Source: Alphaproteobacteria bacterium
GTDB lineage: Bacteria > Pseudomonadota > Alphaproteobacteria > MPNO01 > UBA830
Direction of reading: 5' to 3'
Assembly (NCBI GenBank): GCA_965243135.1
Contig: OZ251539.1
Coordinates: 4,128,001 to 4,192,000, forward strand
DNA: 64,000 nt
A model generated the notes under the pieces. It was not told the DNA's origin. It saw nothing but the letters and a program-made list of their open reading frames with translations, and searched no databases. Made by a program: the position numbers and the translations under genes. Below are positions 32,403 to 43,632 of this stretch, one piece after another; the stretch's first letter is position 1, and each line of letters begins with the position of its first letter.

Positions 32403-34064
32403 TCAAGTGCGGAACGGCTCGAATTCGTCAAATCCAGATCTGGACATATGTTGTTCGATCGCGCTGGCGGTACGAAGCGCCCGCCGTTGTTTCAGATCCG
32501 CGACCCATATGAATTTTCGACCCTTTACGCTTTTGAAATGCAGTCTGCCGCGTTTCCCGTTTTTGACAGCCAAAACGGTTTTGGTTTCCGGATCCGGTTC
32601 AAACTCGAATGACGCGACTTTCGTATAACCCTTGTCTGGAACTCTAAGGCCGATGAAACTTGTTTCGGTCTTGCTGATTCCACATGGCACCACATGTTCC
32701 GGCTGTTTCTCTTCCTCCTTGAGCGGCACAAAAAGAAACGCCTGCGCTGTCTCCAAGCGCACCGAATCGCAGCTCGCCTGAAGGCAAAGCCAATGGTTGC
32801 GTTTGGGATCCAGAACGATTGTACCGAGACCAAGTTCCGGAGAGAATTTTAGCTGCTTTATCGCATAATCATCCGGATGCGAACGCGTACCCGTCAGCGC
32901 TGCAAATTTCTTCATCAACATATTGGCTTCAGCGGAATTTTTGGCAAATAGAGAGGTAAACGACTTCTTGAATCTTTCATTACCTGGCCTTCGAGCGACA
33001 TTGATTAAATTAGGAACATTCCGATATCCATTTAGTATCATCTCAATGACATCATTGACTTGTATGTCCGTTTCATTGTCGTTTTCGTCAATAAATTTGA
33101 GGCTATTACGCTCACCCGCTATCGATTGCACTCGACGTTCCAAAGCGGATTGACCAGCCAGATCCCGCCCGACTTTCCGAAGTCTTGTTGCGCTTGCCAG
33201 TTCCGAAAGAACGAGGTTGACCGCATATTCCTCCGCCTCGTCAGGAACCGGGATGCTCGCCCTATGATGAAAGTACGGTCCGTCCATGTCTCCGCTGAAG
33301 CTGCCCACGACTTGGTGCGTCACGTCTCTGATTTTTGCGACGGTCCCGAGCGCCACGTTCGACAACAGTCCCTCGGACAGCTTGGAAAACTCCTGCAACA
33401 GACGGTCCGGCAGTTCGGACTCGCTTATCTGATCGTTCGCCGAACCCGCTTGAAGCCTGGTACCATGTTTTTTGAACAGGCATACGATTTTCAACCCCAC
33501 TACGCTCCGTATTTCTCTTTTGTCGGAGACGCTCAATTTCATTCGCGATCGCTCGGCTGGCGTCCAAGATGTTTTGATGTCATTCAGTATCTTTCTCCGT
33601 CCGCGTTCCCCGGTATATATCGCGATCAGGCGAAGCCGACCGTTTCGTTCCTGATCGTGTCGGACAATCTCCCTGATCAGCGAACAGGTTGTCGCCCCGC
33701 TGTCGCCGTGGATTTCCCAGTCCAGACACACGATGTCCACTCGCGCCGCGGCTTTCAACACTCTCTGCGTGAGTTGATTCTGATTCTCTCCATGACGGTG
33801 ATGAAGCACGGAGCAGACCAACCCGATATCCATTGCGCCGTCCACGAGGGATTTTGCGTCGAGCACGTGAGTGACGTCTTGCTTTCCGGCAACGACATCG
33901 TCATTCTCTGCCGCCCGACGATGGCCGCGTCCCGGTCGAACGACAACGTTCGGCACTGGATCTTCGACGGTCTCCAAGGTGGCTTCGTCATCCACCACGA
34001 TCATGGTCTGAGCGAAACTTTCGGCAGCCTTCCGTCGATCCTCGCAAAAATCATCCCTCGTCAC
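32403..34064 (-). CDS. Large response-regulator receiver-domain protein with uncharacterised C-terminus
   Basis: IVVDDE acidic pocket, CLDW phosphoacceptor-like Asp, IYTG, LFKK; GTG start after GGAGAG overlapping the kinase 3' end. Confidence 0.8.
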   Translation of the reverse strand: MTRDDFCEDRRKAAESFAQTMIVVDDEATLETVEDPVPNVVVRPGRGHRRAAENDDVVAGKQDVTHVLDAKSLVDGAMDIGLVCSVLHHRHGENQNQLTQRVLKAAARVDIVCLDWEIHGDSGATTCSLIREIVRHDQERNGRLRLIAIYTGERGRRKILNDIKTSWTPAERSRMKLSVSDKREIRSVVGLKIVCLFKKHGTRLQAGSANDQISESELPDRLLQEFSKLSEGLLSNVALGTVAKIRDVTHQVVGSFSGDMDGPYFHHRASIPVPDEAEEYAVNLVLSELASATRLRKVGRDLAGQSALERRVQSIAGERNSLKFIDENDNETDIQVNDVIEMILNGYRNVPNLINVARRPGNERFKKSFTSLFAKNSAEANMLMKKFAALTGTRSHPDDYAIKQLKFSPELGLGTIVLDPKRNHWLCLQASCDSVRLETAQAFLFVPLKEEEKQPEHVVPCGISKTETSFIGLRVPDKGYTKVASFEFEPDPETKTVLAVKNGKRGRLHFKSVKGRKFIWVADLKQRRALRTASAIEQHMSRSGFDEFEPFRT

Positions 34065-37026
34065 TGTTTCTCTCCATTCGCGAAATTCTGAACGCCGCTC
34101 CCGTGGAAGGCTTCCCGGCTTCAAGCGTCAGGTTCCAACCCTCCTTGTTCAACGCCGCCCTCGATATATGGAGCCCCATTCCCCTGCCTCCCGGTTTTCT
34201 CGAAAACCGCAACAGGAAAATGTTGGTGCGATCTCCCGCCCTTACGCCGGGGCCGTTGTCCCGAACCACCAAGGCCCCGTCTTCGGCGTCCAATTCGATC
34301 TCGCGCGGGCGATCCTTTATGTCCTTCAACCAGAATATCGAGTTGTCGACTAGGTTGGCGAAGGCCGAATAGAAGGTCGAAGGGTAACTGACGACCGTCG
34401 CTTCCCGGAAAGCGTCCGTAGTCGTCAAGGCAACGGAGTGGCGTTCCAGCCGCTGTTCGAACAGATCCCTGATGAACTTGTATATCTCCGTACCGCGAAC
34501 CTCCACCCGGTTGCCGTAAAGTCGACGGTCGAATGGCGTGAACATGGTCAGATAACCGTCGAGATGATCGAATGCGCCCCTCATGTCTCTGTAGAGATTG
34601 TCCATATCAGGATTGGCTCGGGCCCAAGCCCGCAATCTTCTGAAGCCGTCTCTGAGCGCGCCAACCGTCTTCTCGAACTCGTGGCTGACGATGCTCACGG
34701 CCATTCCAATCTGGGCCATTTCCAGATCGGTGTCGCGCTGTTCGCGAAGATCCTCCAGTTCTTCTTCCATCGCTACGACCACGTCAATCGAATCGAACTC
34801 CCCTTCCGACCACGATTGACCTAATTCGTCGAATTGCTCCTTCAGGCGCTGGAGACGTATGCGCTCGCGTTCGAACGCGCTGTCGATCTTCTGCTCCAGT
34901 TCCCTGCGTTTCCCGGCGAGGGCATCGACTCCGACCTGCGCGCGCTTTAGTCTCTCCAGTTCGGAAAGGACTTCGTCTACGGTGGAGTTCACGGTTCTGA
35001 AGCTGTTTCTCGTCGTGGACTGCGCGATGGCAGCCACCTTCGAAACCGCTTCGTCCGACTCTTTTCTCAGGCGACGAACCGCTCCTACGGCTGTCTGGCT
35101 TCGCGACCGCACCGCCGAGTCGATTCGCACGAATTGATGGAATGGCAGCTTGAAGTTCGCCGCCGAAGTGCCGACATATTCCTCGATCTGCAATTCGGCC
35201 GGGCCGAGAACGTCGCTTTCCAGCCGTTCGAACTCGCGCGTATAGTCGAGCCACTGGTTGGACAGCCTTCGGGGCAATCCAACTCTCGGCCTGACGACGA
35301 TCGATCGTGCGCGGATCTCCTGCAGCTCTCCGCGCCCGTCCCTCTCTATCCTCATGAGCGCCAGCGCTTTCCCTCTAGGATCGCGTTTTGACCGAAGCAC
35401 CCGATCAGTTCCCCGTTTGACCTTCTCCAGCGTTTCTTCCGTTTCCTTCTCTATAGCGTGCCCGGCAAGTCCGTCAAAAAACAGTTCGAGAGACCGTTCG
35501 AAATTCTGCCGTTTGGAACTAGCCTGCCGCGCTCGGCGCTTTCGGCTTTCGTCCGCTTTCTGGAGTTCTTGCCTTTTCCGTTCCCAGTCTTCCGAGCGGT
35601 TTCCGTCTTCGCGGAAAAAATCGCCAGCGGACTGAAGAAAAAAATTGATGAGAATCGAGCGGAACTGACGATACGCTAGATTCTCGCTGAAGCCCTCCCT
35701 CCCGGCCTTTTCGTTCAAGGCTCCGTTGGCGGCGGCAGTGAGTTCTATCGCGCCGAACATTCGCCGAAACGAATAGAAGTAGTAGCCCGCGCCAAGCGTG
35801 CGGCGCCTTTCGATGTCCAGCCAGTCGTAATCCGCTCCTCCGTATGGCTGAACCCGGATACCGTCTCTGTATATGTATATTCCGCCCAGTCTGCCGGTTT
35901 TCCGGCTCATGCGCGCAAAATCCTCCGGCGGCACCAGGGATGCGGAGCGTTCGCCCTGCAGGATGGCGACCGACAGATCGAAGGGCCCGCATATCGTCTT
36001 GCGGCCGTCTCCCTCGTTCCAGCTCAGCACGTATCTATCCGGTTTCGTCTGATAGACGTGGACATTTCCCTGAAACTGACCGTATTCGTCGAAGCGGCCT
36101 TCGATGCGATGATCGACCATCAGGAATTCGTCTGGAGTGAAAAACGCGCTTTCGCCGATAAACTCCCGCGGCGCGCCTTCGTCCGGATAGTCTCGAAAGC
36201 GCGCCACGATTGGCGGAGGCTTGCTTCCCGGCGTCATGGTGTTCGTGAAGCCGAGAAGGTGCTTCTCGAAGTTCGTCGCCTTGTCCTGCTCCCTTGTATC
36301 CATGTCGTCCTGGACAAGGCGTTCCATCGGTCTGACGAAGAAGTGGGTGCCGGCGCCTTCGCCGGAAAGGGAGGGCGCGCCGAGCTCCGCGTTCAACTTG
36401 CGCGGATCGAGGTCGAATTCGTCCAGATCCCGCCTGATCGCCGCGAGGCGGTCGCGGTCGATCCGATCGGCAAGCCTGTCCACGACATTCGAATACTCGG
36501 CCGTCATCTCCCTGACCGCCGCTCCGTCCGGCAGTGCGGCCGCCGGAAATTCCCGGACGGGGATTTCAATCTCGTCGAGATCGAGTCCTGGAAGCTCGAA
36601 GAGTTTCCAATTCACGAAGGCCGCGACCAGCCCGTCGCCGGGAACGCCGTTCCTTCTGGCGCGGGTAAGGATGAATAGCTGGGGGCCGAGAATCGCGGCC
36701 GCGAGACGTCCGATTCCTTTTTCTCCAAGTGTCGGCCGCTTCGGCTGATCCGGATCCCTTGGGGGCGGCGGCAATCCTTGTTTCGTCCCCAGCTTGCTTT
36801 CCGTCCCCAAGGTGAGCCAGCGTTTCTCGAAATCGTCGCGCGTCATGCCGAGGCCGTCGTCCCGAAGCACCAGCAAGTCGTCTTCGCGGAAATAGTCGAC
36901 CTCCACGTTCCGGGCGTAGGCGTCATGGGCGTTCTTGAACAGCTCGCTGATCGCGGTCGGAATGCCGGCGATCTGCTGCCGGCCCAGCATGTCGACGGTA
37001 CGCGCGCGTACGTGAAACCTGGCCAT
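34051..37026 (-). CDS. MORC/MutL-like GHKL ATPase fused via coiled coil to a histidine kinase
   Basis: N-terminal ELFKNAHDA, DDGLGM, GEKGIGRL; long charged helical middle; C-terminal H-box SHEF, N-box NLVDNS, DNGPG, GRGMGL. Confidence 0.88.
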   Translation of the reverse strand: MARFHVRARTVDMLGRQQIAGIPTAISELFKNAHDAYARNVEVDYFREDDLLVLRDDGLGMTRDDFEKRWLTLGTESKLGTKQGLPPPPRDPDQPKRPTLGEKGIGRLAAAILGPQLFILTRARRNGVPGDGLVAAFVNWKLFELPGLDLDEIEIPVREFPAAALPDGAAVREMTAEYSNVVDRLADRIDRDRLAAIRRDLDEFDLDPRKLNAELGAPSLSGEGAGTHFFVRPMERLVQDDMDTREQDKATNFEKHLLGFTNTMTPGSKPPPIVARFRDYPDEGAPREFIGESAFFTPDEFLMVDHRIEGRFDEYGQFQGNVHVYQTKPDRYVLSWNEGDGRKTICGPFDLSVAILQGERSASLVPPEDFARMSRKTGRLGGIYIYRDGIRVQPYGGADYDWLDIERRRTLGAGYYFYSFRRMFGAIELTAAANGALNEKAGREGFSENLAYRQFRSILINFFLQSAGDFFREDGNRSEDWERKRQELQKADESRKRRARQASSKRQNFERSLELFFDGLAGHAIEKETEETLEKVKRGTDRVLRSKRDPRGKALALMRIERDGRGELQEIRARSIVVRPRVGLPRRLSNQWLDYTREFERLESDVLGPAELQIEEYVGTSAANFKLPFHQFVRIDSAVRSRSQTAVGAVRRLRKESDEAVSKVAAIAQSTTRNSFRTVNSTVDEVLSELERLKRAQVGVDALAGKRRELEQKIDSAFERERIRLQRLKEQFDELGQSWSEGEFDSIDVVVAMEEELEDLREQRDTDLEMAQIGMAVSIVSHEFEKTVGALRDGFRRLRAWARANPDMDNLYRDMRGAFDHLDGYLTMFTPFDRRLYGNRVEVRGTEIYKFIRDLFEQRLERHSVALTTTDAFREATVVSYPSTFYSAFANLVDNSIFWLKDIKDRPREIELDAEDGALVVRDNGPGVRAGDRTNIFLLRFSRKPGGRGMGLHISRAALNKEGWNLTLEAGKPSTGAAFRISRMERNSDEG

Positions 37027-38112
37027 CTATCCCGCGCAGGTCCGGCAGACTTCCTCATGCCGAAGGACATGCCTGCCGACGGCGCTCGCCAGCCTGACCG
37101 GAACCGCGTTCCCGATCTGACGCGCCATTGACCCTATACCTCCGAAAAATTCGAACGAATCGGCGAAAGTCTGAAGTCTCGCCGCTTCCCGTACGCTCAG
37201 CGCCCTGTTCTGCTCAGGATGTCCGTAGCGCCCGTTCGAAAGGCTGATGCACCGGGTCGTCAGGGCAGCTGCGGGCCGGTCCTTGCGAAGTCTTCCGTAA
37301 ACGTCCGTATGGCCCTTGTAATTGTTGTGGCAATCAAGTCTGAGGCGCTCAGGCCAGCTTTCCCGTCCGCAGCCGGGAGGGGTCGCCCGGATTCGCTCCA
37401 GATTTATCCGCGACAGGTTCGCCGCGCAATGATTGGCGATTTTCTCGCAGGATTGGCCGGCCTCCAGCGAGGGAAGGTCCTCGATCCATTTCCACACGGA
37501 CTCCGGTTCAGGATGGTCGGTGCCGGGTCCGTGCGTCGCGTCCGGCACCTCGATCGGGCCGAGCAGGCTGGCCAGCAATACGAAGCGCCGACGGTATTGA
37601 GGGACGCCGAAGTCCTGCGCCTTCAGAATCCCCGTGTCGTGTTTGTATCCCAGCCTATCGAGCAGTTCGGTAAACCTGTCCAGCGGCCCCCCCTTTTTGT
37701 TGTCGACGTCCTGAAGTCCGGCGACATTCTCGACGAAGACGTAATCAGGTCGAAAGGTTCCGATGAACCGGTGGATTTCGTCGAGCAGGCTGGCGCGGGT
37801 GTCCTTGCGGTCCCGGGTCGTCCGTTGCCTGGTGAACGGCTGGCAGGGAGCGCAGGCCGAAAACAGCAACGGGCGCTTCCGGTTTTCCCGGTTCTCCGGA
37901 ATCACCGATGTCAGATCGCTATGCCGGAGATGCCGGATGTCTTTCAGGAAAAATTTCGCATCCGGAAAATTCCCGGCGAACGTGCGCCCGGCATCGGCAT
38001 CATTGTCGATCCCCGCAAGGATCCTCATGCCCACCTCCTGCAGCCCGGCACTCGTGCCTCCGCATCCGCAGAAGAAGTCAACCACTTCGATCACAGACAA
38101 CCCGCCATGCAT
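37027..38112 (-). CDS. DNA (cytosine-5) methyltransferase
   Basis: Motif I FCGCGG, IV PCQ, VI ENV, VIII QYRRR, IX/X REAARLQTF...QIGNAVP. Confidence 0.95.
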   Translation of the reverse strand: MHGGLSVIEVVDFFCGCGGTSAGLQEVGMRILAGIDNDADAGRTFAGNFPDAKFFLKDIRHLRHSDLTSVIPENRENRKRPLLFSACAPCQPFTRQRTTRDRKDTRASLLDEIHRFIGTFRPDYVFVENVAGLQDVDNKKGGPLDRFTELLDRLGYKHDTGILKAQDFGVPQYRRRFVLLASLLGPIEVPDATHGPGTDHPEPESVWKWIEDLPSLEAGQSCEKIANHCAANLSRINLERIRATPPGCGRESWPERLRLDCHNNYKGHTDVYGRLRKDRPAAALTTRCISLSNGRYGHPEQNRALSVREAARLQTFADSFEFFGGIGSMARQIGNAVPVRLASAVGRHVLRHEEVCRTCAG

Positions 38113-38225: not shown

Positions 38226-38265
38226 TTGACTTCCATTGCGAAACGCTTTAGAACAAAAGATGAAT
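38226..38265 (+). promoter_or_regulatory. imuA promoter with alphaproteobacterial LexA (SOS) box
   Basis: TTGACT(38226)-N17-TAGAAC(38249) overlapped by GAAC-AAAAGAT-GAAT (38251-38265), matching GAAC-N7-GAAY. Confidence 0.8.
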
Positions 38266-38279
38266 CTCCGGATGACGCC

Positions 38280-39005
38280 ATGCTTGAACGATACTCACGA
38301 AGCCGGTCCGCCGGCGACGGTGCGGCGGCCGGCCCCGAGGCCGTCCGGCGGGCCGACGCAAGCGCGCCGGTCGACCCTTCGGACCTCGGGTTTCTGCGCA
38401 GCGCCCTGCACGAGGTGTTCGCCGCGGACGCGGGCGCCGCGACGGCTTTCTGCGCTCTGCTGGCCGGCCGGCTGGCCCGCGCCGGAAACTTCGTCCTTTG
38501 GTGCGAACAGCCCCGGGCGCTCGACGCCGGCGAGCTTTACGCACCGGCGCTGCGGACTTTCGGCGTCGATCCCGAGCGGATGCTTCTGGTGCGGGCGCGA
38601 CGCGACGCGGATGCGCTATGGGCGATGGAAGAGGGTTTGCGCAGCCGCAGCCTCGCCGCGGCGGTCGGCGAAGTCGCCGAACTGAGCCTGACCGCCGCCC
38701 GCCGCCTGCAACTTGCCGCCGAGGCCGGCGGCGCCGCGGCGATCGTCCTGCGGCCGAATCGCGAGACGCCGTCGCCGGGAGCCGCCGCGACGCGCTGGCG
38801 CATCGGCGAACCGCCGGCCCGAACGGTCGACGCGCCGCGGCAGCCGGCTTCCCCGGGCCTCGGCGCAGCGCAATGGCGGGCGAGGCCGTTTCGCTGCCGG
38901 GGCGGCGCCTTCCGAATGATCGAGTGGAACCATGAAACGGGTGATTTCTCTGTGGCTGCCCCGGTTCGCGACGGACCGCGCGCGCTGCCGGAACCGGCCG
39001 GATAG
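38280..39005 (+). CDS. imuA: ImuA (RecA-like mutasome accessory protein)
   Basis: ALHEV, DALWAMEEGLR, LTAARRLQLAAE, AATRWRI; upstream of imuB. Confidence 0.88.
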   Translation: MLERYSRSRSAGDGAAAGPEAVRRADASAPVDPSDLGFLRSALHEVFAADAGAATAFCALLAGRLARAGNFVLWCEQPRALDAGELYAPALRTFGVDPERMLLVRARRDADALWAMEEGLRSRSLAAAVGEVAELSLTAARRLQLAAEAGGAAAIVLRPNRETPSPGAAATRWRIGEPPARTVDAPRQPASPGLGAAQWRARPFRCRGGAFRMIEWNHETGDFSVAAPVRDGPRALPEPAG

Positions 39006-42000
39006 ACCGTTCGGCCTGATCGAATCTCGCGGCGGCCAGTTTCTGCTGCATGCCGTCGACGAGAAGGCGGAACGGGCCGGGATCCGCGTCGGGCAGACAT
39101 TGGCCGACGCCCGCGCGATTCTGCCCGAGATCGACGCCGCCGAAGTCGACCCGGCGGCGGAAGCGCGCGCCCTGGCCCGTCTCGCGGAATGGTGCGGCAG
39201 ATACACTCCGTGGACCGCTCCCGGCGGTTTCGGAAACGTCGGCGACGGCTCGGTCTGGCTCGACGTCACCGGTTGCGCCCGCCTGTTCGGCGGCGAGCCC
39301 GCCTTGCTCCGCGACCTGGCGCGCAAAGTCGGAGATCTCGGTTTCTCGGCCCGCGTCGCGGCCGCCGACACGCCGGGCGCCGCGTGGGCCGTCGCCCGTT
39401 ACGGCCGTTCTCGCGTGGAGCGCGTTCTCCGGGGCCAGTCCCGGGACGCGATCGCGCCGCTGCCGGTCGCGGCGCTCCGGCTGACGCAGCCGACCGTCCT
39501 GGACTTGCATGCGCTGGGGCTGCGTCGAGTCGACGATCTGCTGGCCATGCCGCGGGCGACGCTGGCCGACCGGTTCGGCCGCGAAATCGTCGATCGGCTG
39601 GACCAGGCGCTGGGCGCTCGCCCGGAGCCGATCTCGCCCGTCGCCCCGGCGAGCCGGACGTTCGCGCGAGTCGGATTCTCCGAGCCGGTCGGACGCAGCG
39701 AGGATATCGCCGAAGCGCTGGGCAACCTCGCAAGCGAGATCGCGGCCGCCCTCGAGGCCGAAGCACGCGGCGCACGGCGACTGGTCCTCGCCCTCCATCA
39801 TTCGGACGGCGCGGTCGACCGGCTCGCCGCCGGGACGAGTTGGCCGAGTTGCGACGCCGGGCATCTGGCGCGCCTGTTCGCCGAACGCCGCATCGAGTCG
39901 GCGTTCGGCGTCGACGCCATGACGCTGACCGTTGCCGAAAGCGAGCGGCTGCGGCCGCTGCAGGCTGCCTTCGATCGCGGCGGTCAGGAAGCGGACGTCG
40001 CCGAGCTTGCCGACCGGCTGAGCGCGCGGCTCGGCGCCGACCGCGTGTTGCGGCCTTCGCCGCGGGAAAGCCGCATTCCGGAACGCGCAGTCGAACTGTC
40101 CCCCGTCACGGCCATGCGGCCGCCGCCGAGCGCTTCGTGGCGGGACGGGATCCTTCCTCTACGGCTTTTTTCCCCGCCGGAAGAAATCGAGGCGGCGCCG
40201 CCGGGTTTCGACGATCCGCCGACGACGTTTCGCTGGCGCAGGCGAACGTTCCGCGTCGAGCGCGCGGACGGTCCCGAACGGCTGTCGCCGGAATGGTGGA
40301 GACCGGACGACCGGGCCGCCTCCCGCGACTACTACCGGGTCGAGGACGATAACGGCCGCCGTTTCTGGATCTACCGGGAAGGCCGCTCCGGGTGGCGCCT
40401 CCATGGAATATTCGGAAGAAGCGCCGCGCGGGCGGGACAAAGACCGGGCGCGCCGGAACGCCGGAAGCGCCCGAGCGCTCCGCCTCGCCGGCCCGCCCGC
40501 CCGCCGCCCTACGCCGAGCTCGCCGTCACGACCAACTTCTCCTTTCTCCGGGGCGCGTCCCATCCCGAGGAACTCGTGGCCAAGGCCGCCGCGCTCGGAC
40601 TTTCCGCGGTTGCCGTTGCCGACCGCAACACGCTCGCGGGCGTGGTCCGCGCCCATCAGGCCGCGAAAGAGGCGGGCATCCGGCTGCTCGTCGGCGCGCG
40701 GCTCGATTTCGAGGACGCGCCGCCGCTGCTCTGCTTTCCGTCCGACAGGGCGGCCTACGGCCGGCTCTCCAAACTCATCACCCTCGGCCGCCTGCGCGCT
40801 CCCAAGGGCGCCTGCGCGCTTCGTCTGGAAGATCTTGCCGCGCATGCCGGAGGACAGTCCCTCGTCGCGATGCCGCCGGACGACCCCGAGGATCCGCAAA
40901 TCCTCGGCTACCTTGCCCGGCTGCGCGAGATGCCGGGAGCCGGCGTCTGGGCGGCCGCGCGCTTCCGCTACGGCGGCGGCGATGCGGCGCAGCTGCGGAA
41001 GATCGCCCGCCTCGCGGCGCGGGCCGGGGTTCCCATGGTCGCGATCAACGACGTCTGCATGCACGTTCGGGAACGCAAGCCGCTGCTCGACGCGCTCGCC
41101 TGCATCCGCGAAGGCTGCACGATCCGCGAGGCGGGTTTCAGGTTGGAGCGCAACGCCGAGCGTTGCCTCAAGCCGCCCGAAGAGATGGCGCGGCTGTTCC
41201 GGGACTATCCCGACGCGGTACGGCAGACGATGGAAATAGCCGGACGTTGCGCCTTCTCGCTGGACGAGTTGCGCTACGACTATCCCGACGAGGCGCCGTC
41301 CGGCGCGACCCCGCAGGCCGAGCTCGAACGCCTGGTTTGGGAGGGCGCCGCCGAACGTTATCCAGACGGCGTGCCGGACGACGTGAAAACGCAGGTCGCC
41401 CGCGAGCTCGGGCTGATCGGAGAGCTGGGCTACGCGCCCTATTTCCTTACCGTTCAGGATATCGTCCGCTTCGCCAGATCCAGGAGCATTCTGTGCCAGG
41501 GACGCGGGTCGGCGGCCAATTCCGCGGTTTGTTATTGCCTCGGCATCACCGCCGTCGATCCCGTGCGCATGGATCTCCTGTTCGAGCGCTTCGTGTCGGC
41601 CGCGCGCCGGGAGCCGCCCGACATCGATGTCGATTTCGAGCACGAGCGCCGCGAAGAGGTCATTCAGTACGTCTACGGCAAATACGGCCGCGAACGCGCC
41701 GCGCTGGCGGCGACCGTCATCCACTACCGTGCGCGCATGGCCGTGCGCGAGGTCGGCAAGGCGATGGGACTCAGCGAAGATACCACCGCCGCGATCGCCT
41801 CCACGGTCTGGGGATGGAGCGGGAATGGCATAGCCCCCGAACAGGCTGGCGAGGCCGGTCTCGATCCGAACGACCCGCAGCTTTGCGCAACCCTTCGACT
41901 CGCCGGCGAGCTGACCGGCTTTCCGCGCCACCTGTCGCAGCATCCCGGCGGCTTCGTCGTCACGCAGGGACCGCTCTCCGAACTCGTCCCCGTCGCCAAC

Positions 42001-43632
42001 GCGGCCATGCCCGACCGCACCACCATCGAATGGGACAAGAACGACCTCGACGCACTCGGCATCCTTAAGGTCGACGTGCTCGGGCTCGGCATGCTGACCT
42101 GCATTCGCAAGGGCCTCGACCTGCTGGCGCGGCACTACGGCAGAAAGTTCGACCTTCACCAAATTCCCGCCGACGATCCCGACGTCTACGACATGCTGTG
42201 CGCGGCCGATTCCGTCGGCGTGTTCCAAGTCGAAAGCCGGGCTCAGATGACCATGCTGCCACGCCTCAGGCCGCGCAACTTCTACGACCTTGTCATCGAG
42301 GTCGCGATCGTCCGGCCCGGACCCATCCAGGGCGACATGGTCCATCCCTATCTGCGCCGCCGCAACGGCGAGGAGACGGTCGACTATCCCTCCCCGGAAC
42401 TGCGCGCCGTGCTGGAAAAGACCATGGGCGTGCCGTTGTTCCAGGAGCAGGCGATGAGGATCGCCATCGTCGCCGCCGGATTCACCCCGTTGGAGGCCGA
42501 CAAGCTGCGGCGCGCCATGGCGACCTTCCGCAACGCCGGCACGCTGGACGCCTTCCGGGAAAAGCTGGTCGGCGGCATGGTCGCCAACGGCTACGATCAG
42601 GAATTCGCGGAACGCTGCTTCCGCCAGATCGAGGGGTTCGGCGAGTACGGCTTCCCGGAAAGCCACGCGGCGAGCTTCGCGCTGCTGGTCTACGTGTCCG
42701 CCTGGCTCAAGAAGCATTACCCGGACGCGTTCGCCGCCGCCATCCTCAACAGCCAGCCCATGGGATTCTACAGGCCGGCCCAGCTCGTTCGCGACGCCCG
42801 AGCGCACGGCGTCGAGGTCCGTCCGGTCGACGTCAACCACAGCCTGTGGGACAACGCCCTGGAAAGGAACGGAAATGCCAGCGCCCTGCGTCTGGGGTTG
42901 CGACAGGTCAAGGGATTTTCGAAGGAGCATGCAACGACCCTGGCGCAGGAAGCGTCGGTCCGCCCTTTCTCTTCTCCGGCGGACCTCCGACGCCGCACGG
43001 GCCTGCCGACGGCGGCGCTGGAGCGGCTGGCGCATGCGGACGCTTTCGGCTCGATGGGGATCGGCAGGCGTCAAGGGCTATGGGCGGCGGCGGCCCCCGC
43101 GCCGTTGCCGTTGTTCCAAAGCAATGAAGCGCGCCCGATCCCGAAGTTGCCGTCGATGGCGGCAGGGGAGGCCGTTACCCGCGACTACGCGTTTCTCGGC
43201 CTGTCGCTCAAGACGCATCCTCTGGCCTTGCTGCGCGCGGAATTGGGCGCCGCCGTTCCAGCCGAACGGCTTGCGGAGATGAAAGACGGCGCGGCGGTCT
43301 CGGTCGCCGGGCTTGCGCTTATGCGGCAGCGGCCCGGCACGGCGAGCGGCGTTATCTTCATGACGATCGAAGACGAGACCGGAGTGGCCAATCTGGTGGT
43401 CTGGCCGAAGATCTTCGAAAGGTACCGCCGGGTCGTGATGGGCTCCCGCCTGATTCGGGCGAGCGGGCGGCTTCAACGCGAGGGGATCGTCATCCATGTC
43501 ATCGCCGACCGGATGGAAGATCTGACCGATCGCCTGCGCGCTCTCGCCGCCGGAAATGCTGCAAGTCCCGGACGAAACCCTGGCGGTTCCGGCCGGCTCG
43601 GCAAGCTGTACCCGTCGCGGGACTTTCGTTGA
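38932..43632 (+). CDS. ImuB-DnaE2 (ImuC) fusion: inactive Y-family polymerase plus error-prone C-family polymerase
   Basis: N-terminal ImuB (RVISLWLP, LDVTGCARLFGGE, GPERLSPEWW, RDYYRVED, WRLHG) in frame via a Pro/Arg linker with DnaE2 (YAEL..TNFSFLRGAS, PDIDVDF, KVDVLGLG, C-terminal SRDFR). Confidence 0.9.
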   Translation: MKRVISLWLPRFATDRARCRNRPDRPFGLIESRGGQFLLHAVDEKAERAGIRVGQTLADARAILPEIDAAEVDPAAEARALARLAEWCGRYTPWTAPGGFGNVGDGSVWLDVTGCARLFGGEPALLRDLARKVGDLGFSARVAAADTPGAAWAVARYGRSRVERVLRGQSRDAIAPLPVAALRLTQPTVLDLHALGLRRVDDLLAMPRATLADRFGREIVDRLDQALGARPEPISPVAPASRTFARVGFSEPVGRSEDIAEALGNLASEIAAALEAEARGARRLVLALHHSDGAVDRLAAGTSWPSCDAGHLARLFAERRIESAFGVDAMTLTVAESERLRPLQAAFDRGGQEADVAELADRLSARLGADRVLRPSPRESRIPERAVELSPVTAMRPPPSASWRDGILPLRLFSPPEEIEAAPPGFDDPPTTFRWRRRTFRVERADGPERLSPEWWRPDDRAASRDYYRVEDDNGRRFWIYREGRSGWRLHGIFGRSAARAGQRPGAPERRKRPSAPPRRPARPPPYAELAVTTNFSFLRGASHPEELVAKAAALGLSAVAVADRNTLAGVVRAHQAAKEAGIRLLVGARLDFEDAPPLLCFPSDRAAYGRLSKLITLGRLRAPKGACALRLEDLAAHAGGQSLVAMPPDDPEDPQILGYLARLREMPGAGVWAAARFRYGGGDAAQLRKIARLAARAGVPMVAINDVCMHVRERKPLLDALACIREGCTIREAGFRLERNAERCLKPPEEMARLFRDYPDAVRQTMEIAGRCAFSLDELRYDYPDEAPSGATPQAELERLVWEGAAERYPDGVPDDVKTQVARELGLIGELGYAPYFLTVQDIVRFARSRSILCQGRGSAANSAVCYCLGITAVDPVRMDLLFERFVSAARREPPDIDVDFEHERREEVIQYVYGKYGRERAALAATVIHYRARMAVREVGKAMGLSEDTTAAIASTVWGWSGNGIAPEQAGEAGLDPNDPQLCATLRLAGELTGFPRHLSQHPGGFVVTQGPLSELVPVANAAMPDRTTIEWDKNDLDALGILKVDVLGLGMLTCIRKGLDLLARHYGRKFDLHQIPADDPDVYDMLCAADSVGVFQVESRAQMTMLPRLRPRNFYDLVIEVAIVRPGPIQGDMVHPYLRRRNGEETVDYPSPELRAVLEKTMGVPLFQEQAMRIAIVAAGFTPLEADKLRRAMATFRNAGTLDAFREKLVGGMVANGYDQEFAERCFRQIEGFGEYGFPESHAASFALLVYVSAWLKKHYPDAFAAAILNSQPMGFYRPAQLVRDARAHGVEVRPVDVNHSLWDNALERNGNASALRLGLRQVKGFSKEHATTLAQEASVRPFSSPADLRRRTGLPTAALERLAHADAFGSMGIGRRQGLWAAAAPAPLPLFQSNEARPIPKLPSMAAGEAVTRDYAFLGLSLKTHPLALLRAELGAAVPAERLAEMKDGAAVSVAGLALMRQRPGTASGVIFMTIEDETGVANLVVWPKIFERYRRVVMGSRLIRASGRLQREGIVIHVIADRMEDLTDRLRALAAGNAASPGRNPGGSGRLGKLYPSRDFR

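Follow-up and report, generated by a model that had tools for sequence, protein, structure and literature searches.

A natural in-frame imuB::dnaE2 fusion in an alphaproteobacterial mutagenesis cassette and its probable product, a tethered mutasome

The closest described relative of the locus reported here, an imuB gene fused in frame to dnaE2 in the genome of an alphaproteobacterium, is the canonical proteobacterial imuA-imuB-dnaE2 cassette (the ImuA1-ImuB1-DnaE2A type in the main text of PMC12926913). The fused locus lies within a stretch of 64,000 nucleotides (GenBank assembly GCA_965243135.1, contig OZ251539.1, positions 4,128,001 to 4,192,000 of the forward strand), which is referred to as the window and from the first letter of which positions are counted. 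It shares with the canonical cassette the gene families, the gene order and a LexA-like box upstream, an ImuB that is inactive by sequence and has a RecA-NT-like motif, an ImuB-C region and a putative site for the clamp motif, and a DnaE2 with a PDIDVD motif and a C-terminal SRDFR. It differs in that imuB and dnaE2 constitute one open reading frame (ORF) with neither an imuB stop nor a dnaE2 start, the two parts being joined by a linker of 31 amino acids. In mycobacteria the same functional trio is distributed with imuA'-imuB at one locus and dnaE2 elsewhere; ImuB is described there as the hub that binds the beta clamp through an essential motif (352-QLPLWG-357 in M. tuberculosis, needed for both the function of the mutasome and the formation of foci), and the stoichiometry is not predictable from the genes (PMC10421592). 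The gene organization in the window is the opposite, and ImuB and DnaE2 would be held at 1:1 by covalent linkage.

Other variants show that mutasome modules have repeatedly been joined and separated. In DnaE2X systems ImuB is split into an inactive PolY and a stand-alone ImuB-C, and ImuB itself is viewed as a fusion of PolY and ImuB-C (PMC6511836, PMC12926913). The same surveys assign ImuA binding to the RecA-NT motif and DnaE2 binding to ImuB-C, which is thus the candidate DnaE2-binding module; these variants concern the link between PolY and ImuB-C, and joining of ImuB-C to DnaE2 is not described in the main texts. In the AlphaFold model published for the split complex, the most extensive contact of ImuB with DnaE2 is that of ImuB-C with the PHP domain, and a second interface involves the ImuB thumb and the DnaE2 HhH domain (PMC12926913). 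The epsilon-peptide–linker–PHP fusion of E. coli Pol III (PDB 4gx8/4gx9, PMC3919608) likewise has a PHP partner tethered N-terminally by a flexible linker; it is artificial, made for crystallization from the replicative DnaE1 and its proofreader, whereas the protein in the window is natural. No natural ImuB–DnaE2 fusion was found in the main texts of PMC3919608, PMC6511836, and PMC12926913, the supplementary tables of which could list some, and full-text literature searches returned reporter fusions or one unrelated phrase match only. A PDB sequence search found no ImuB or DnaE2 structure and matched only DnaE1 and PolC.

The fused ORF and its parts are as follows:
38932..43632, forward strand: fused imuB::dnaE2 ORF, ATG start, 1566 amino acids plus stop, no internal stops
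38932..40416, forward strand: ImuB module, residues 1-495, a Y-family scaffold, inactive by sequence
39961..39972, forward strand: QAAF, residues 344-347, where the beta-clamp-binding motif would lie, a putative equivalence by position
39994..40053, forward strand: RecA-NT-like motif, residues ~355-374 (DVAELADRLSARLGADRVLR), a putative ImuA-binding element
40162..40416, forward strand: ImuB-C, a predicted beta-barrel, residues ~411-495, from a weak DUF6504 match and the AlphaFold2 (AF2) model
40417..40509, forward strand: linker, residues 496-526, Arg/Pro/Ala-rich, without start codons
40417..40419, forward strand: codon 496, AGA, which occupies the ancestral imuB stop position
40510..43629, forward strand: DnaE2 module, residues 527-1566, beginning at the conserved YAEL without a Met
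41617..41634, forward strand: PDIDVD, residues 896-901, catalytic motif
residues 1562-1566, forward strand: SRDFR, the C-terminal end of DnaE2

A first-pass annotation, made from the sequence alone, had proposed a single uninterrupted frame of 1566 residues in which ImuB ends in WRLHGIFG where its homologues stop, continues through AGA and about 30 Pro/Arg/Ala-rich codons devoid of start codons, and enters a DnaE2 that retains PDIDVD and SRDFR, with a clamp-motif-like QAAF also kept. Reading of the ORF together with Pfam and NCBIfam matches confirmed this architecture. G495 is the last residue of ImuB, codon 496 is AGA, no in-frame ATG, GTG or TTG occurs from residue 470 until the GTG of V549, and the three motifs stand at the positions listed above. 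The composition of the linker was as proposed (24 of 31 codons encode Arg (9), Pro (9) or Ala (6)), and its length was revised to exactly 31 codons, with ImuB ending at residue 495. A chance open frame in a GC-rich genome was dismissed because each half strongly matches its family. The genome is a single closed contig of 6.10 Mb that carries no other copy of imuB or dnaE2; a separate DnaE1-like gene (G000:C1:1696777-1700223) is 34% identical to the DnaE2 of the window.

The DnaE2 module is complete. Its Pfam domains follow in the order PHP (531-647), DNA_pol3_alpha (797-1051), finger (1054-1220), HHH_6 (1293-1381), and OB (1456-1531), and residues 525-1565 match positions 4-1046 of the 1047 in the NCBIfam profile NF004225 ("error-prone DNA polymerase") with 1450 bits against a cut-off of 939. 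Y527 starts the conserved DnaE2 N-terminus (YAELAVTTNFSFLRGAS), in which E5, L6, N11, F12, F14, L15, A18, and S19 are invariant among 24 DnaE2s; the module departs from the stand-alone family in lacking a start codon of its own. PDIDVD is unchanged in seven fused proteins and in the 24 DnaE2s (P372, D373, I374, D375, and D377 in module numbering). D897, D899, D901, and D1048 are invariant in the seven fused proteins, the third Asp sitting in KVD; which of these aspartates are catalytic we take from E. coli DnaE. Identity of the module is 58-75% to split alphaproteobacterial DnaE2s and 53-54% to those of Bacteroidota.

The ImuB module has a Pfam IMS domain at residues 38-154 (40.5 bits, cut-off 23.2), a weak IMS_C match, and a weak match to DUF6504, which corresponds to ImuB-C, at 426-485 (E 0.0011, 19.6 bits, under the cut-off of 24.2). 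Its end at HGIFG coincides with the end of all 23 aligned ImuBs. The Asp-Glu pair of active Y-family polymerases, whose catalytic residues we take to be those of E. coli Pol IV, is missing: the window ImuB and three other ImuBs read (G)SVWLD, against SIDEAF in the DinB-like protein of the same genome, and CDSFYASVE of the latter aligns with LPRFATDR of the window ImuB. The ImuB module is, as judged from these residues, a catalytically dead Y-family scaffold. In an alignment of 24 ImuBs, Q344 and L340 are invariant, QAAF forming part of L-x-x-x-Q-A-A-F, and the same place reads QAALD or QAAFH in relatives. QAAF departs from both QL[SD]LF and QLPLWG, and its role in clamp binding is putative. 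Within the RecA-NT-like motif no ImuB departs from D361 and G368, and L359 and R362 are almost fully conserved; the ImuB-C motifs GPER, EWW, and RDY are invariant (same alignment). The window ImuB-C is without an acidic insert of 20-40 amino acids that is present in relatives of the same family.

The DinB-like gene is the only other Y-family gene of the genome (L046:766-2055, reverse strand, of G000:C1) and reads AHLGCDSFYASVE. Its SIDEAF is intact, and a Gly stands where the first catalytic Asp would presumably be, again with E. coli Pol IV as our point of reference.

Independent sequence data support the junction. Contigs in Logan from four runs belonging to three studies were compared with positions 40100-40800, and in all four the junction was crossed with no gap and no listed indel. 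Run X1 contributed an identical contig of 9948 nt, which may derive from the source sample. X4 is a further sample from that study, and its two contigs, which overlap and cover 40286-40800, were identical to the window. A 1916-nt contig from a sponge metagenome of a second study (X5) covered the whole stretch without gaps and with 17 substitutions, none of them inside 40351-40577, and the frame is still open once the 16 listed substitutions are applied. In the third study a 343-nt contig (X7) was identical over 40298-40640. None of the sequencing runs listed for the locus was of RNA. The contention of the first-pass annotation that the fusion is not a miscalled stop codon was thus corroborated, the contigs of three studies showing neither stop nor indel over 40298-40640 or more.

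Close relatives with split genes had been named as the finding that would tell against the fusion; the close relatives turned out to be fused. A search with the ImuB part against 5.8 billion protein clusters, restricted to lengths of 861-2741 amino acids, gave nine hits, four of which (P0002 to P0005, 1529-1559 amino acids) are fused and 82-97% identical. Further full-length fused members of these clusters are P0161, P0162, and P0166-P0169, and the deposited protein of this genome (P0165) is fused as well, called from residue 57 with a length of 1510 amino acids. In total 11 full-length fused proteins including P0165 were found in the clade (Logan, ENA, and NCBI assemblies), all of them free of stops, the other ten being 83-98% identical to the window. 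The clade is a sponge-metagenome-associated alphaproteobacterial lineage. A search with an ImuB profile for longer proteins returned only six already known fused proteins; given the limit set by the word index of the search, this speaks only weakly for rarity. Three further hits of the cluster search (P0006-P0008, two of them named from Sphingomonas) are ImuB-like proteins of 875-916 amino acids, near double the normal length, in which IMS, IMS_C, and DUF6504 are present and polymerase domains are absent.

Beyond this clade, 37 junctions were read, comprising 17 GTDB relatives (same genus, family or order), 13 of 19 genome-contig loci, and 7 of 20 metagenome loci, some of the last duplicating genome-contig records. 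All 37 of these more distant loci have both genes and none is fused. The metagenome contigs yielded no DNA of a close relative. In every one, TGA, TAA or TAG directly follows the imuB end ...HG-x-F-[G/A/P] or a close variant, and dnaE2 has its own ATG one to four codons ahead of [Y/F]-x-E-L, with spacers between imuB and dnaE2 of 5 nt to ~720 nt. Because all 37 carry a stop at the position of the AGA codon and a dnaE2 start, the fused state is, as read from these junctions, derived. Open frames of 1582-1660 amino acids in several relatives had suggested further fusions; a stop was found between the genes in each. Programmed read-through was also considered, imuB and dnaE2 being in the same frame in 7 of the 17 relatives, and was abandoned because this is near the one-third expected by chance.

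In a DnaE2 tree (first 650 residues, 43 rows, quick IQ-TREE, L043 omitted as too short) the window clade of five has a support of 100 and is sister, with a support of 96, to 13 split genomes of its own family. Starred branches of the tree force at least three changes of the fused state, which set apart the window clade, a Myxococcota pair, and P0088; this count does not separate gains from losses. Independent fusions are the simpler reading of these sequences, because the linkers are unrelated and every intervening genome is split. Nor is the fusion confined to the window clade: public databases contain at least two other fused lineages, and one of their proteins, P0009 (1539 amino acids, from an NCBI Myxococcota metagenome-assembled genome), is annotated only as "error-prone DNA polymerase". 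P0010 (1559 amino acids) is a distant fused protein from the same cluster search, and P0088 (JGI/IMG, 1547 amino acids) is a third full-length distant fusion with an unrelated linker of ~27 residues. These three proteins have the same architecture as the window protein, with a non-conserved linker of 20-28 amino acids from the end of ImuB-C to YAEL; they differ from it in sequence (ImuB 30-33%, DnaE2 about 51% identity), their linkers are unrelated to that of the window, and split genomes stand between them and the window clade on the tree.

P0088 came from a HMMER search with residues 300-720 against 1.84 billion representatives, which gave 11768 hits at E<=0.001. Thirteen of the best 150 of these hits, apparently spanning the junction, were inspected by eye against the upstream frames of split relatives. 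They comprised one full-length fusion (P0088) and two fused fragments (P0011 and P0015). In eight others (P0012, P0013, P0034, P0049, P0051, P0086, P0101, and P0124) the imuB 3' end is out of its own frame and read in that of dnaE2, and these were taken as errors or pseudo-fusions; P0017 and P0158, dnaE2 calls extended upstream, were excluded as well. The metagenome fragments P0011 and P0015 (392 and 394 amino acids) have ImuB-C intact to WFLHG, followed by three altered residues and then M..PRY[A/V]EL. This pattern is the expected outcome if the frame shifts by one base where the genes overlap in ATGA, and the fragments represent either a second, linker-less route to fusion or a recurrent one-base error at that overlap.

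Several observations concern the split relatives themselves. G003 and G004, assigned to the same genus by the grouping tool, are 43-45% (ImuB) and 61% (DnaE2) identical to the window and have a different position on the tree. Identities are higher in other genera of the family (ImuB 50-59%, DnaE2 67-75%), which raises the suspicion that cassette and species may have different histories. In eight relatives of the same family (L005 and L007-L013; genomes G007, G010, G024, G016, G013, G012, G008, and G019) the spacers between imuB and dnaE2 measure 200-720 nt and could accommodate small inserted genes; two types of spacer recur in their sequences. In a closed related genome (L024, G025:C1:2091500-2098500) the matches of both imuB and dnaE2 are spread over several frames and the cassette looks pseudogenized; because of this spread it was excluded from the junction count.

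The linker itself bears on how the fusion arose. Over residues 493-524 the GC content is 0.78 and the GC content at third codon positions (GC3) is 0.72, compared with a GC3 of 0.82-0.83 in the two modules. Because GC3 is lower than in the modules, though the overall GC is 0.78, the linker is probably a former intergenic spacer of ~90 nt that was recruited into frame. Across the fused clade it measures 22, 29 or 31 amino acids, so that all its indels are in frame, and its identity to the window is 52-77%, compared with 83-98% in the flanking modules. A fast-evolving segment of variable length fits a passive tether.

Structure models point to a contact between the two parts that the fusion joins. 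Residues 398-815 were modelled with AF2 from an alignment of 54 rows (mean predicted local distance difference test score (pLDDT) 83.3, predicted template modelling score 0.63). ImuB-C was predicted as six beta-strands forming a barrel over residues 411-496 (pLDDT block means 74-92) and the PHP fold was confident, with low confidence in the linker (block means 45-51 over residues ~498-517). A two-chain model of ImuB-C (398-495) and the PHP part of DnaE2 (residues 1-290 of the DnaE2 module) was run together with three controls. The interaction prediction score from aligned errors (ipSAE) was 0.80 for ImuB-C with PHP, compared with 0.39 for the best control; the runs shared >=83% of contacts and the partner pLDDT was >=77. 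Of 80 solved complexes 58 attain the ipSAE mark, whereas of 110 mismatched pairs 2 do so; these counts hold only roughly here because custom alignments were used. The predicted contacts involve residues 446-452 (DGPERLS), 455-456 (WW), and 464-469 (RDYY) of ImuB and, on the PHP side, residues 156-162 and 215-219 of the DnaE2 module, where Y156, G158, and D160 are nearly invariant and N217, A218, and E219 invariant among 24 DnaE2s. ImuB-C therefore most likely docks in cis on PHP, if these models hold, and the fusion joins the very two parts assigned to the contact in the published two-protein model. Both models are in keeping with a covalent adaptor-polymerase.

Upstream of the fused ORF the cassette continues as follows:
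38280..39005, forward strand: imuA, RecA-like accessory gene, open from TTG 38226, likely start ATG 38280
38240..38265, forward strand: LexA-box-like repeats GAAA-N7-GAAC-N7-GAAT upstream of imuA, a putative SOS operator

The imuA gene lies directly upstream of imuB, its expected position, and overlaps the fused ORF by 74 nt (38932-39005), ending in TAG. The ATGA at 38932-35 would provide the customary overlap of stop and start, yet it does not lie in the imuA frame. The box (GAAACGCTTTAGAAC) comprises two matches, at 38240-54 and 38251-65, each with one mismatch to GAAC-N7-GAAC, which we take to be the alphaproteobacterial LexA consensus. The lexA gene of the genome is preceded by a perfect GAACCAAACTAGAAC, and recA by GAACAAATAATGTAC. 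With a box one mismatch from the perfect repeat of lexA upstream, SOS control of the cassette is plausible.

The imuB::dnaE2 fusion is real and inherited, and the locus is likely to represent an SOS-type imuA–imuB::dnaE2 operon that encodes a tethered mutasome. An ancestor of this alphaproteobacterial lineage would have lost the imuB stop, now AGA, and the dnaE2 start, the spacer of ~90 nt becoming an in-frame, presumably disordered linker of 22-31 residues rich in Arg, Pro, and Ala. The operon, with its LexA-box-like element, would be induced by DNA damage and give one chain of ~170 kDa composed of an ImuB scaffold module and a DnaE2 translesion polymerase module. The scaffold would contribute the clamp-motif-like QAAF, the RecA-NT-like element for ImuA, and the ImuB-C barrel, the last docked in cis on the PHP domain that follows right after the linker. 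Since this docking would repeat the contact proposed for the two-protein complex, adaptor and polymerase may be held at 1:1 and go to the beta clamp together; the mutagenic function would be that of the split system. The fusion is genuine and rare, a variation in the architecture of a well-studied system and not a new mechanism, and it leaves the picture of how the mutasome works unchanged. Natural joining of ImuB-C to PHP provides independent "Rosetta-stone" evidence that both parts work in contact, and this evidence is the stronger because the fusion recurs in unrelated lineages. The stoichiometrically defined single chain is a candidate for biochemistry and cryo-electron microscopy, and comparison of the fused protein with an engineered split version would be a clean genetic test of whether adaptor-polymerase coupling alters mutagenesis.

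Several points weigh against this interpretation. The linker diverges faster than the domains and has a lower GC3, and hence is weakly constrained. The X5 contig has seven synonymous and nine non-synonymous substitutions in 701 nt, too few to demonstrate strong purifying selection. P0170, a member of the fused clade called at 1012 amino acids on a 46-kb contig, starts at the GTG equivalent to that of V549; either its upstream part is broken or the gene is miscalled. The imuA product matches NCBIfam NF033429 (ImuA_translesion) with an E-value of 8.9e-19 and 68 bits, under the curated cut-off of 150, and no Pfam match was obtained for it. The LexA-like box is mismatched and, because its pattern is not enriched in the 64-kb window (72 matches against 63.7 expected), position is the sole argument for it. 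The fold and complex models are predictions, and the complex model covers ImuB-C with PHP only.

Whether the fusion is of use to the cell is a separate question, and it may be neutral rather than advantageous. Following the loss of the dnaE2 start, a stop or frameshift in the linker abolishes DnaE2, so selection on the polymerase alone keeps the frame. As this selection suffices, persistence of the fusion over about 15% protein divergence is no proof that tethering is beneficial. The one hint of an advantage is the recurrence in three lineages. We regard it as doubtful that selection favoured the single-chain mutasome as a convergent solution with at least three independent origins (this clade, Myxococcota, and P0088). 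If it did, the mutagenic polymerase could be neither made nor brought to DNA unless its clamp adaptor came with it, an added DNA contact or a regulated cleavage site may be provided by the basic Arg/Pro linker, and the fused proteins would be natural ready-made constructs for a first experimental structure of the ImuB–DnaE2 assembly.

It is rather improbable that DnaE2 is also, or mainly, produced separately, by initiation at the GTG of V549 or by proteolysis of the linker, and acts in an ordinary multi-protein complex. The P0170 call begins at the equivalent GTG, a GAGGA stands ~5 nt upstream of it in the window, and the linker, predicted to be disordered and basic (Arg/Lys-rich), would be a likely protease target. 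However, a start at V549 would cost ~22 conserved N-terminal residues of PHP (YAEL..NFSFLRGAS), and the GAGGA and GTG are not evidence of a start because the conserved PEELV peptide dictates them.

Decay of the locus, with the fusion as a by-product of relaxed selection on a disused mutagenesis cassette, is very unlikely. The cassette is broken in the related closed genome G025 mentioned above and, in the window, adjoins a low-GC island; yet the catalytic and interface motifs are all intact, the modules are 83-98% identical over the clade with no stop in 11 full-length sequences, and the DnaE2 has 58-75% identity to the aligned split orthologues of Alphaproteobacteria.

Finally, that imuB and dnaE2 are really separate and a base error in sequencing or assembly erased the stop is scarcely credible and largely refuted: many apparent ImuB–DnaE2 "fusions" in metagenome protein libraries do read as frameshifted calls (8 of the 13 inspected above), but the window junction keeps the frame and the ImuB end is intact, a single base error is insufficient as a cause because the dnaE2 start codon is absent too, the four runs from three studies concur without gaps, and the ten other full-length relatives are fused with in-frame linker indels.

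The low-GC island (32403-38112, reverse strand) lies directly upstream of imuA and has a GC content of 0.54-0.62, compared with about 0.66-0.72 around it. It consists of three genes:
32403-34124, reverse strand: Response_reg_2 protein
34051-37026, reverse strand: 991-amino-acid protein with HATPase_c_3, HEF_HK, and HATPase_c
37027-38112, reverse strand: C-5 cytosine DNA methylase

The island looks like an acquired three-gene methylase/kinase/receiver module.

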